Assembly: GCA_018883165.1 (NCBI GenBank)
Contig: VEQN01000005.1
Span: 1 to 52,874, forward strand
DNA: 52,874 nt
Direction: 5' to 3'
Source: Candidatus Tayloriibacteriota bacterium
Lineage (GTDB): Bacteria > Patescibacteriota > Minisyncoccia > Phycocordibacterales > CAIZLB01
Positions 1-4,007 of this stretch are shown piece after piece. The notes below the pieces were generated by a model, which worked only from the letters and a program-made list of their open reading frames with translations, made no database searches and was not told the DNA's origin. The position numbers and the translations under genes are program-made. Position 1 is the stretch's first letter, and every line of letters begins with the position of its first letter.

Positions 1-260
1 GCTGAACACATTACTGTGCTTACACTTAAAGCCTATCAACCTAGTAATCTCCTAGGGGTCTCAAACGATTATTAATCTTGGAGCAAGTTTCCCGCTTAGA
101 TGCTTTCAGCGGTTATCAAAACTGAACATAGCTACCCGACGGTGCCCTTGGCAGGACAGCCGGTAGACCAGAGGTTCATTCATCCCGGTCCTCTCGTACT
201 AGGGACAAGCCTCCTCAATAATCAACGCCCACAGTAGATAGGAGACCAACCTGTCTCACG

Positions 261-640
261 CGTGACATACCAAATCATTTTCATGATTGACTGGACTAGA
301 ACTTCTTCCGGGATTTTTTCTAACTTCCTTTTGATAAACAAAAAGATCCTAGAAAAAATGCTTGGGAAGGTTAACGATTAGTCTCTACGGGTGCCTTCTT
401 AGGCTTCCCTCGGAATTGTCATGACTTTATAAATAAAGTTTTAGATTTTCCCGATACTAGTTAACTTATCACATTCTGCTTACGCAAAAGTGACGCCGTG
501 ATTTTATCTCCTATTTTTCGACGAAAAGACCTTTAATGAATTGTGTATAACAATCTGGTTTGAATAAATGATAACCCTCATATGTTTTAGGTTCAGACGG
601 GTTCGCGGGTCAAATTCTAATGAAAGAACTTCACCAGCGA
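261..640 (-). ncRNA. Group I self-splicing intron in 23S rRNA at E. coli position 2593 (380 nt, no intact homing endonuclease)
   Basis: Interrupts GACCGU^CGUGAGACAG. The 5' exon ends in U and the intron ends in G. Core elements on the minus strand: P3 GUUAAC pair, R element CGUAGAGACUAA, S element UCUAGUCC (P7 GACUA/UAGUC), P2 capped by GUAA, guide sequence UCACG-GCG at about 494-501. Confidence 0.93.
504..581 (-). other. 25-aa mini-ORF in intron loop L1 (MRVIIYSNQIVIHNSLKVFSSKNRR), possible homing-endonuclease remnant
   Basis: ATG at 581 and TAA at 506-504, ending just before the guide sequence. No recognisable motif. Confidence 0.3.
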
Positions 641-667
641 ACGGTCTGAACCCAGCTCGCGTAACTT

Positions 668-700
<33 letters not shown>

Positions 701-955
701 TCTCCAGCCCCAGGATAAGTTGAGCCGACATCGAGGTGCCGAACACTACCGTCGATATGGACTCTTAGGTAGTACCAGCCTGTTATCCCCAGGGTAACTT
801 TTATCCGTTAATCTTAAGCCGCATCTAATGCGAACTCTCGGTTCACTATGCTCCGCTTTCGCGTCTGCTCGACATGTACGTCTTGCAGTCAAGCTAGCTT
901 GTGCCATTACACTATCGGCACGGTTTCCATTCGCGCCTAGCTAACCTTAATAAAC

Positions 956-996
<41 letters not shown>

Positions 997-1299
997 ACCC
1001 ACCAGATACTGTCTCTCTAAGTTTTTGCCTTAGAGATTAGAACATATAGTCACAAAAATTGGTATTTCACTGACGAGTAGATCGTAACCGAAATCACAAC
1101 CATCAAACCTCTCCCAACTATGCTACGTAGTGTAATCATATGCTCAATATCAAGCTGCAGTAAAGCTTCTAGGGTCTTTTCGTCTATCTGCAGGTAACCG
1201 GCATCTTCACCGGTATTGTATTTTCACCGAGCAGGTCTTCGAGACAGCTCTCCAGTCATTATGCCATTCGTGCGCGTCGGAACTTACCCGACAAGGTAC

Positions 1300-1340
<41 letters not shown>

Positions 1341-2765
1341 CAGGGCTTATATCAGCCAGCAATACATCTTGCGACATATCACCACCGATATTTGACCTTC
1401 TGGCATTGGTCAGGTGTCACCCCCTATACATCCTCTTGCGAGTTCGCAGGGAGCTGTGTTTTTGATAAACAGTTGCCAGAGATACTTTCGCTGCGGCCAC
1501 TTTAATAAATTAAAATGGCAAGCCTTATTCCAAAGTTACGGCTGCTTTTTTGCCGAGTTCCTTGAAGACCTCTCACTCGTTCGCCTTGGTCTACTCGACC
1601 TGATCACCTGTGTCGGTTTGCGGTACGGTTTTCACATATATTAAGTTTAGAAGTTTTTCTCGGAAGCGTGCTTTATAGAATCGACAGAAAGCGAACTTCC
1701 CGCTGTATCACTCTGCTTGGAATCGATATTTAAATCAGTCACCGGATTTACCTGGTGAGCATCCTTACAGCATGAACGCAAATCCTTTAATGCGCTCTAT
1801 ATACTACACTCCGTCCCTCCATCACTATACGTGAAAGTCATGGAATATTAACCATGTGTCCATCAGGTCCGACTCTCGTCATCCCCTTAGGCCCGACTAA
1901 CCCTTCGTCGACAATCGTTGCGAAGGAAACCTTGATCTTTCGGCGTCGGGGTTTTTCACCCCGATTGTGGTTACTTGTGCCAACATTCTTACTTCCTGAC
2001 GCTCCAGAGTGGGTCACCCCTTCTCCTTCATCGCGGACAGGAACACTCTCCTACCAATAGATTTATCCGAAGATAAATTTATTCCTCAGTTTCGGTACCA
2101 TGTTTTAGCCCCGCTTATCTGCGGCGCGGAGTCTCTTGATGAGTGAGCTGTTACGCTATCTTTCAAGGATTGCTGCTTCTAAGCAAACCTCCTCATTGTC
2201 AATGAAACTCCACCACCTTAAGTGCACTTAACATGAATTTAGGGACCTTAAATAGAGATCTGGGCTGTTTCCCTTTTGACTAGTGCAGCTTAGCCCACAC
2301 AGTCTGACTGCCACGCTCTAACTTCTAGTATTCAGAGTTTGATAGGACTCGCGAGATTTCTCCCTGTCGAGTCCTTCCAGTGCTTTACCCCTAGAAGGAA
2401 CACGTGACGCTAACCCAAAAGCTATTTCGGAGAGAACCAGCTATTACCAAGCTCGATTAGCTTTTCACTTCAACCCACAAGTCATCCGGATGCGTTGAAC
2501 AACATATCGGTTCGGCCCTCCATCTGTCTTTCGACAAACTTCAGCCTGCTCATGGGTAGCTCGCTTTGGCTTCGGGTCTGATACGTACTACGTACGCGCT
2601 ATTCACACTCGGTTTCCCTATGGCTCCATCCTCGCGGACTTAGCCTGCAGCATGTATCAACTCGTTGGCTCATTCTTCAATAGGCACGCCGTGACGGTAT
2701 AAATACCGCTCCGACTCCTTGTAGGCATATGGTTTCAGGTCTATTTCATCGTCCTCACCGGACTG

Positions 2766-2802
<37 letters not shown>

Positions 2803-3411
2803 ATCACAACATATATTTAGCCTTAGCAGTTAGTTCTGCTGGATTCCTCCGAGCTACTCGTGTCTCGAAGTACTCAAGAATGACAGTAAGAGGTATTTCA
2901 TTTTCATATACGGGACTATCACCCACTAGGGTTAAGCTTTCCAGCTTATTCTATTAATGAAACACTTTGTAACTCTTTGAACATAAATGTTCGTCTGCCA
3001 CCTTACAACCCCGAGCTACCCAATGGACTGTACTATTGCTAGTACCTTCCATTGGAAAGCTCGGTTTGGGCTCTTTCCATTTCGCTCGCCGCTACTTAGG
3101 AAATTGTGCACTTACGTGCTTGTTTTCTTTTCCTCCAGGTACTGGAATGTTTTACTTCCCTGGGTAAGCATCTTGAATCTAGTCAAGATTAGAGATCAAG
3201 TCTCTAGGGTTTCCCCATTCGGAAATCTCCGGATCAAAGGTTGCTTAGCACCTCCCCGAAGCGTATCGCCGCTATACTGCGTCCTTCATCGCTATGTTGT
3301 GTCAAGGCATCCACCATACGCCCTTATATTTCCATTAGGAAATATAAAAACCACAATCACTTTTATTTGTTACCTGCCCCACATATCTTCTTGAGAAAAA
3401 ATATGTGGGAT

Positions 3412-3653
3412 TGTCGGAGCTCTAAAGGATGGGTGATATAAAATCACCACTAACGGATGGAGATGCGGGGTTTGGACCCGTAAATGTCTTAAGTCAGTTT
3501 CACTGTCCCAACAGCTGTTGCTTACACTATGGCTTGCAACTTTTTTGACAGCAAACTGCCACGACATTTTTTAGAGCTACCTTTCATGGTACTCTCAACT
3601 CCTTCTACCGCAGGGTTTGCAAAAGCCGATGCGCACCCTTTAGAGCTCCGACA
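3412..3653 (-). ncRNA. Candidate structured ncRNA in the 23S leader with a tRNA-like core
   Basis: Perfect 17-bp closing inverted repeat (3412-3428 / 3637-3653) enclosing several nested stems. G-U pairs favour the minus strand. Confidence 0.55.
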
Positions 3654-3865
3654 CTATCTCTGGCTTGAAAAGACCATAAAATAAATTTTACGTTCACCAG
3701 GATAGAATTTAGTTTTCAAGGTATATGTTTTCTGAGTGATCTTTCGAGTGCTATTTTCTTAAAAGAAAATGCTCTCTTTCGAGAGCGGTCTTTCCTATAG
3801 CGTCCTATTCAGACGTTATTGGTCTAACCGCATTCGTAAGATGATTAACATAACTGATACGGGCT

Positions 3866-3893
3866 ATTATACGCATAGAGAAACCTTTGTCAA
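3866..3893 (-). promoter_or_regulatory. Sigma70 promoter of the 23S transcription unit
   Basis: TTGACA (3893-3888), 16-nt spacer, TATAAT (3871-3866). Perfect consensus with rrn-P1-like spacing. Confidence 0.9.
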
Positions 3894-3974
3894 CAAAAAT
3901 ACCTTCAAAAATAGGGCTGGAAATGGTAAAACAGGATGTTTCTAAAAAAGCCATATAATAGGCCATGGGATGAA

Positions 3975-4007
3975 ACAAAAAACACCCCTCTTGAGGGTGT
4001 TTTTTGT
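3975..4007. terminator. Intrinsic terminator
   Basis: acaaaaaacaccc...gggtgttttttgt, downstream of the 4032-4721 gene. Confidence 0.85.

Follow-up and report, generated by a model that had tools for sequence, protein, structure and literature searches.

Organization of the 23S rRNA Leader

The window analyzed here is a stretch of 52,874 nucleotides from a Candidatus Tayloriibacteriota bacterium (contig VEQN01000005.1, positions 1 to 52,874), whose genome (G000) is 0.75 Mb in size and 99.7% complete. A 23S rRNA gene, the 3' end of which is cut by the contig end, occupies positions 1..3337 of the minus strand (Rfam LSU_rRNA_bacteria, 2268 bits, model positions 1-2891 of 2925). Besides this gene, no Rfam family was found in the whole window at the gathering threshold. 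The 16S gene is situated on a separate contig (C17), so the 23S gene is unlinked from the 16S gene. The gene upstream of the 23S leader encodes a mechanosensitive-channel-like membrane protein.

Transcription of the leader would start from an rRNA promoter at 3866..3893 on the minus strand, in which the hexamers TTGACA and TATAAT are separated by a 16-nt spacer and match the consensus at 12 of 12 positions. The hexamers are identical in 16 related leaders. The plus strand of the leader region contains no promoter-like site, hence no antisense promoter was found. The element studied here (3412..3653, minus strand) occupies the interval that begins roughly 210 nt and ends roughly 450 nt past the promoter, and at least 75 nt separate it from the 23S start. 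With the promoter at 3893-3866 and the 23S start at 3337, the element is therefore part of the 23S 5' leader. This agrees with an earlier description made from the nucleotide sequence only (the sequence-only reading), which had placed a noncoding element where the 16S gene would normally lie. In a check for coding potential, the open reading frames at 3370-3567 (minus strand) and 3529-3684 (plus strand) gave no Pfam match, and the extra A present in two strains (X2 and X3, described below) would shift the frame of the first.

For comparison, the whole leader was searched against 40 relatives, 24 from the same family and 16 from other families. The 5' part of the leader and its last 75 nt were matched in 16 of the 24 same-family genomes and in none of the 16 others, and no match among the 40 relatives covered the element. 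The leader set assembled for alignment and folding consists of G000, 16 related genomes, and 19 metagenome loci, the last found through a conserved 26-nt pattern adjoining the 23S start. Of these 36 leaders, 30 are distinct. All 36 have the same architecture, which is composed of the promoter, hairpins, a boxA-like motif, helix IV, helix V, hairpin VI, and a strand that pairs with the 23S trailer.

The first of these features that we describe is a terminator-like hairpin, GCUCUC-GAAA-GAGAGC followed by a U-run (3771..3786, minus strand), for which the relatives keep GACCGCUCUC...GAGAGC and UUUUCUUUU. This GC-rich hairpin precedes the boxA-like motif within the rRNA leader, where it may act as an attenuator or contribute to a signal for antitermination. 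The boxA-like motif, CUUGAAAACUAAAUUCU, at 3704..3720 on the minus strand, is kept across the related leaders, and we take it to resemble the boxA of rRNA antitermination. Helix IV (3654..3705, minus strand) was read from the aligned leaders as CUAUCCUGG paired with CCAGAGAUAG, and it encloses a small hairpin together with the motif GGUCUUUUC. Compensatory changes in this helix are seen in relatives, for example CUACCCUGAU paired with AUCAGAGGUAG in the congener G003. The GGUCUUUUC motif (3667-3675, minus strand) is nearly invariant (GGUCUUU) over the 36 leaders examined.

Between the element and the 23S gene, hairpin VI (3378..3409, minus strand) carries a conserved loop, UUCUCAAG, on a stem that shows compensatory changes in all leaders folded. 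Hairpin VI, whose stem covaries freely and which is placed directly 5' of the 23S processing stem, may be a recognition site for a protein or an RNase. The last segment of the leader (3338..3377, minus strand) is the predicted 5' strand of a leader-trailer stem, identified through reverse-strand matches ~3.7 kb downstream in relatives, where the complementary stretch corresponds to 3377-3340. The predicted leader-trailer duplexes have energies of -76 kcal/mol in G003 and -66 kcal/mol in the congener G005. The 23S trailer of G000 lies beyond the contig end, and the evidence for this stem is that of the relatives. As modeled there, the leader-trailer stem next to hairpin VI is the canonical 23S processing stem, and it is present in relatives that do not have the insert described below.

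Predicted Structure of the Element

The element spans 242 nt of the minus strand, and its coordinates and sequences match the earlier description. Its ends form a closing stem of 20 bp (3653-3634 with 3431-3412), made up of 17 Watson-Crick pairs (3653-3637 with 3412-3428), a G3636-U3429 pair, and 2 further pairs. The two arms (3634..3653 on the 5' side and 3412..3431 on the 3' side) were recovered as a 19/20 inverted repeat in a search of the organism's own genome, and the stem is also present in the minimum free energy (MFE) fold. The perfect 17-bp stem, extending to 20 bp with one G-U pair, is thus as the sequence-only reading had drawn it. The genome encodes RNase III (139.9 bits; gene at C11:9594-9986), and the proposal that the stem is a plausible RNase III target is upheld to that extent.

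Fold stability was compared with 200 dinucleotide-preserving shuffles. The MFE of the whole element is -98.4 kcal/mol, against a shuffle mean of -65.3 kcal/mol (sd 4.6), which corresponds to a z score of -7.24, and none of the 200 shuffles was as stable. For the interior without the closing stem, the z score is -2.75, with 1 of 200 shuffles as stable. The closing stem thus accounts for a large part of this signal.

The interior, a 202-nt segment at 3432..3633 (minus strand), contains a four-way junction at 3458..3602, which is the cloverleaf-like core of the sequence-only reading. Outside the junction, the predicted fold has a small hairpin (3632-3619), a short stem (3613-3608 with 3456-3450), and a terminal hairpin (3448-3432). 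The junction is closed by an acceptor-like stem, GGAGUUG/CAUCUCC (3602-3596 with 3465-3459). This stem is present as claimed in both the MFE and the centroid fold, but only 6 of its 7 pairs form, with a U3598-U3463 mismatch. Three more components of the earlier description also appear in both folds, namely the D-position hairpin with the loop AUGAAA (3595-3573, 8 pairs and a bulged A), the stem AAAUGUC/GACAUUU (3569-3563 with 3488-3482), and the T-arm-like hairpin CGGG-UCCAAAC-CCCG (3480-3466). The three hairpins that were thought to replace an anticodon loop are not favored. Instead, the AAAUGUC/GACAUUU stem is the base of one long bent arm (3569-3482), with a predicted energy of -27.6 kcal/mol against -21.8 kcal/mol for the three-hairpin version (5.8 kcal/mol worse) and a pair probability of 0.997. 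The long-range pairing suggested between GGCUU (3627-3623) and AAGCC (3535-3531) is complementary at the sequence level.

The Element Is Situated in a Variable Leader Helix

The closing stem corresponds to helix V of the related leaders, which the MFE fold shows as a closed hairpin in all distinct leaders but one (29/30). That one, the metagenome locus L058, folds differently, though its sequence is homologous to that of another locus, L047. The basal pairs of helix V covary; at pair 4, for instance, CG occurs 9 times, GC 12 times, AU 4 times, and UA 4 times. In 27 leaders helix V measures 26-91 nt, compared with 242 nt for G000 and 292 nt for the congener G004. Among the relatives, the uninterrupted helix V stem has at least 4 bp and at most 19 bp, the maximum being reached in L048 and L060; a stem of 17-20 bp is thus barely outside their range. 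Because the relatives have a hairpin at the homologous place, the closing stem is the ancestral hairpin. What sets G000 apart is the 202 nt inserted into the loop, for which the relatives have no counterpart. G000 and G004 share the outer 7 bp of the arms, and the outer GUCG/CGAC also occurs in the G003 hairpin. The insert is sporadic: none of the 9 congeners has it, nor does any of 40 further genomes of the family.

The helix V insert of G004, a leader identical to that of the metagenome locus L053, also has a 17-bp perfect closing stem. It encloses a bona fide tRNA-Lys(UUU) with an encoded CCA (L012:1330-1404, identified by ARAGORN). G004 has in addition an orthologous housekeeping tRNA-Lys(UUU), 93% identical to that of G000, and the copy in the leader is therefore an extra, divergent gene. 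The inserts of G000 and G004 are unrelated as far as sequence comparison goes: their local alignment score of 18 compares with a null of 16.5 +/- 2.1 and was equaled by 79 of 300 shuffles, and their global score was reached by 140 of 300. Over the first 1 kb of the 23S gene, G004 is 89.2% identical to G000, and the congeners with a short helix V are 86.9-90.4% identical.

Homologues of the insert were searched for widely. It is a single-copy sequence in its own genome. In 49 genomes of the family, a BLAST-type search gave only isolated matches of 17-29 nt, and a covariance model built from the core as a single sequence gave none at E <= 0.1. Among 400 genomes of the order, isolated short matches were found in 6 (up to 39 nt across both genome sets). 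The phage collection contained no match to the insert, metagenome contigs contained no exact 29-mer, and genome contigs contained no exact 20-mer. A search of viral contigs for exact 21-mers returned one 1.8-kb contig with an isolated 22-mer, which has nothing else in common with the insert and contains no Rfam family. The 22-mer (L093:401-422, IMG/VR) equals part of the D-like hairpin (3574-3595), and its surroundings are GC-rich and unrelated. Several of the short genome matches overlap 'GGTAGCTCTAAAA' in contexts that are unrelated, one of them antisense within a 23S insertion of another genus, and this clustering is probably due to chance.

The insert is also without similarity to the 23S insertions of G000, G001, G003, and G005. 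At E <= 10, a search of positions 3300-4000 against Rfam gave no match inside the element, in keeping with the earlier statement that it is not recognizable as 5S, tmRNA, RNase P, SRP, or 6S RNA. Weak matches outside the element to Gl_U4, RAGATH-12, and mir-299 (E 4.6, at hairpin VI) were set aside as chance. By these comparisons the insert is an orphan, with no recognizable homologue beyond near-identical metagenome copies in three runs. As far as sequence data can show, the insert has neither homologues nor covariation and belongs with lineage-specific spacer hairpins, an outcome that the earlier reading had named as counting against its proposal.

Other insertions occur in the mature 23S rRNA of this group. 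G000 has a 376-nt insertion in its 23S gene at 264-639 (minus strand), and its congeners have insertions of ~230 nt at 1305/1306 (G003 and G001) and of ~290-340 nt at 974/975 (G001 and G005). In another genus of the order, a ~210-nt 23S insertion lies between conserved domain IV segments (L039 in G265:C9 and L040 in G082:C7). Some of the 23S inserts have short motifs in common; none in the window reaches an Rfam gathering score. Given sporadic insertions at three 23S sites in the genus, insertions into loops and helices are common in the rRNA unit of this lineage.

Strain Variants and Sequencing Runs

Copies of the element were found in three DNA runs from three studies (X1, X2, and X3). A single 436-nt contig from X2 spans 3370-3804, and the element is covered, with 1-3 differences, by two contigs from X1 and one from X3. 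Because contigs from these runs cover the element, its sequence is not an assembly artifact. Neither joints nor empty-site forms of the element were seen in the DNA runs. The copies are near-identical. One variant, U3492C, converts the G3560-U3492 pair into a G-C pair (-1.9 kcal/mol), and the other two, A3522U and an extra A within an A-run, fall at loop positions. All three are compatible with the fold, and a sample of three is much too small to serve as evidence of covariation. The density of strain differences in the flanking leader is similar to that in the element.

In one RNA run (X18), a single 178-nt contig represents the leader of a relative (3646-3821, with 7 differences and 2 gaps). 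It ends 7 nt into the closing stem and, coming from one study as a contig only, is uninformative on processing.

Comparison with tRNA

With default settings, ARAGORN found no tRNA in the window, and none was found in the G000 leader when introns of 0-150 nt and thresholds of 85% were allowed, in line with the earlier view that the element is not a canonical tRNA. The same settings do recover the tRNA-Lys(UUU) in the G004 leader. A tRNA covariance model was built from 26 of the 35 G000 tRNAs, leaving out 9 long-arm Leu, Ser, and Tyr tRNAs, together with the G004 leader tRNA, and was run with filters off. It gave no full-length match in the G000 leader. Its sole local match, with a score of 3.7 bits and an E value of 0.92 in 563 nt, is to the T-arm-like hairpin, and chance hairpins on either strand score the same under this model. 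When the core was aligned with 36 tRNAs, the best local score was 19, compared with a shuffle mean of 19.5.

The anticodon position is taken by the 88-nt arm rather than by a 5-bp stem with a 7-nt loop, and the hairpin at the D position, with its AUGAAA loop, has no G18-G19-type loop of a D-arm. The T-arm-like hairpin has a 4-bp stem and the loop UCCAAAC, where a tRNA has a 5-bp stem and UUCRANY. The acceptor-like stem, with its U-U mismatch, is followed by an A and then by UCC. A CCA is encoded in only 7 of the 26 type I tRNA genes of the genome; 19 of 26 lack it, so a missing CCA is uninformative. The resemblance to a cloverleaf consists of a four-way junction and one T-arm-like hairpin, with no detectable relationship to tRNA. 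The tRNA set of G000, which comes from a fragmented assembly with 35 tRNA genes, includes a tRNA-Ile(UAU) (C6:79977-80050, ARAGORN), one CAU tRNA, and no tRNA-Ile(GAU); either some genes are unassembled or AUA/AUH decoding is unusual.

Interpretation

The reading that we favor, with a probability of about 0.6, is that a leader hairpin has been expanded in this species alone, in the manner of an intervening sequence (IVS), and that the resulting element is transcribed, excised, and then destroyed. The apical loop of the conserved but hypervariable helix V would have given way to ~200 nt of unrelated sequence that folds on itself. The element lies between the rRNA promoter and the gene, and pre-23S RNA made from this promoter would include it. 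The 23S rRNA would then be released through the separate leader-trailer stem, predicted here and seen in relatives. RNase III would probably cleave the long perfect stem, and the leader would then be lost by degradation together with its insert. The element was not found in any of the three RNA runs, which contain just 0.04-0.08 of the sampled words. Two observations count against a discarded spacer. The interior folds better than its shuffles (z score of -2.75, 1 of 200), and none of the three strain variants disrupts the fold, as would be expected of a selected RNA structure, although three changes are a very small sample.

The same two observations are what a young, lineage-specific stable RNA would lead one to expect, since the variants retain or strengthen the fold. 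Such an RNA, ~200 nt long and structured, would be freed by RNase III, persist, and act in trans, for instance as a sponge for a protein or an RNA. The perfect stem, the encoded RNase III, and a consensus promoter that would guarantee high coexpression with rRNA all suit it. We nevertheless consider it unlikely, as neither the 49 genomes of the family nor the 400 of the order yielded a homologue, the hairpin from which the closing stem descends bears no cargo in relatives, and the RNA runs, sparse as they are, do not contain the element. A bolder version, in which a newborn species-specific RNA is released by RNase III in rRNA-like amounts and its junction, with the T-loop-like hairpin, engages tRNA-binding machinery such as RNase P or the CCA-adding or modification enzymes, seems quite improbable. 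If it were true, the leader hairpin, together with the tRNA-Lys nested in that of G004, would be a "launch pad" that captures and expresses new small RNAs. We also regard as doubtful the idea that a redundant tRNA gene in the loop of helix V has decayed into a pseudo-tRNA with an overgrown anticodon arm. Its appeal lies in G004 and L053, where a real tRNA-Lys(UUU), additional to the housekeeping gene, occupies the same helix within a 17-bp perfect stem, and in the four-way junction of G000 with its T-loop-like UCCAAAC closed by a G-C pair. Against this, no tRNA program or model recognizes the element, its best score to 36 tRNAs (19) does not exceed the null mean, the two inserts are unrelated, and G004 is no closer to G000 (89.2%) than are the short-hairpin congeners (86.9-90.4%).

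The sequence-only reading had offered a tRNA mimic that recruits RNase P/III for 23S maturation. In one such scheme RNase P (or RNase Z) would cut the leader and help to mature the 23S 5' end, and the stacked acceptor-like and T-arm-like helices, an A at the discriminator position, and an RNase P RNA in the genome (112 bits) would fit it, the missing CCA being neutral. The stack, however, has 11 bp with a U-U mismatch and not 12, the D-like hairpin lacks the expected loop type, the covariance model finds the T-arm only, ARAGORN finds nothing, and the shuffle comparison places the core no nearer to tRNA than chance. A part in 23S maturation is equally hard to reconcile with the 27 of 30 related leaders that have only a hairpin of 26-91 nt and no insert, in relatives that use the leader-trailer stem, and the mimic is thus very unlikely. 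It is highly improbable that the element is a MITE-like mobile DNA element with 20-bp terminal inverted repeats. The 19/20 inverted repeat around 202 bp and the sporadic occurrence among congeners would suit such an element, but it is present once in the genome and in none of 449 related genomes, no target-site duplication or direct repeat is visible at the arms, and the arms are at least partly ancestral because their outer 7 bp are shared with G004 and GUCG/CGAC with G003. YrlA RNAs combine a long terminal stem with a tRNA-like module and bind the Ro/Rsr protein, and the element has this overall shape of a long end-paired stem around a tRNA-like module. The shape is all that it shares with a bacterial Y RNA: the TROVE domain (PF05731) has no match in the 99.7% complete genome, with positive controls in Deinococcus and Bacteroides, and Rfam gave no match at E <= 10. 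A Y-RNA-like identity is almost certainly wrong.

The outcome is thus mostly a clean negative, in which an eye-catching tRNA-like noncoding RNA turns into a lineage-specific expansion of a variable spacer hairpin. On the favored reading, a bacterium with a 0.75-Mb genome has an IVS-like loop insertion not in its mature rRNA but in the leader that precedes its unlinked 23S gene. The conserved leader hairpin would be a tolerated landing site, and one congener carries a real extra tRNA there. If the excised RNA proved to be stable, it would be an example of a new noncoding RNA arising inside an rRNA transcription unit.

Comparison with Known Systems

tRNA-like folds are used as processing signals in several systems, such as mascRNA and the element upstream of 5S rRNA in Haloferax, and t-elements of plant mitochondria are reportedly signals of this kind. 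The element is similar in having a cloverleaf-like fold within a longer transcript, beside an RNA that needs maturation. In contrast to these signals, it has no statistical likeness to tRNA, and the relatives mature their 23S rRNA without the insert. A second comparison is with the tRNA genes in spacers and leaders of rRNA operons. The same helix hosts a tRNA-Lys(UUU) in G004, and the element has acceptor-like and T-arm-like stems, but it has no anticodon loop or canonical D-arm and is not recognized by tRNA tools.

Unlinked rRNA genes are said to be widespread. In Helicobacter pylori, where the 23S-5S genes are unlinked, RNase III cuts additional precursor stems as well as the stems that flank the 23S rRNA (PMC6582327). 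The resemblance to our locus lies in a separate 23S unit with its own leader and extra RNase III targets, which are predicted in the present case (PMC6582327). The extras described there comprise an antisense RNA that covers the leader and a stem-loop that precedes 5S (PMC6582327). In the leader studied here, the extra feature is a local hairpin that holds an insert of 200 nt, and the search for an antisense promoter was negative.

The closest parallel is with the IVSs of 23S rRNA. They are described as extra stems of 100-200 nt that RNase III cuts out, and no effect of this on the function of the ribosome has been detected (PMC8708148). An IVS lies within the mature 23S rRNA, which becomes fragmented, and is a simple extended stem, whereas the element lies in the 5' leader, would cause no fragmentation, and has a branched four-way junction in its interior. 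In other respects the IVSs of Salmonella, Campylobacter, the alpha-proteobacteria, and others resemble the element. In both cases a structured sequence of 100-200 nt or more replaces the loop of a conserved helix and is bounded by a long closing stem. Close relatives have such a sequence only here and there, and the sequences of different lineages are unrelated. By analogy with the IVSs, removal by RNase III would be expected for the element as well, leaving the ribosome unaffected.
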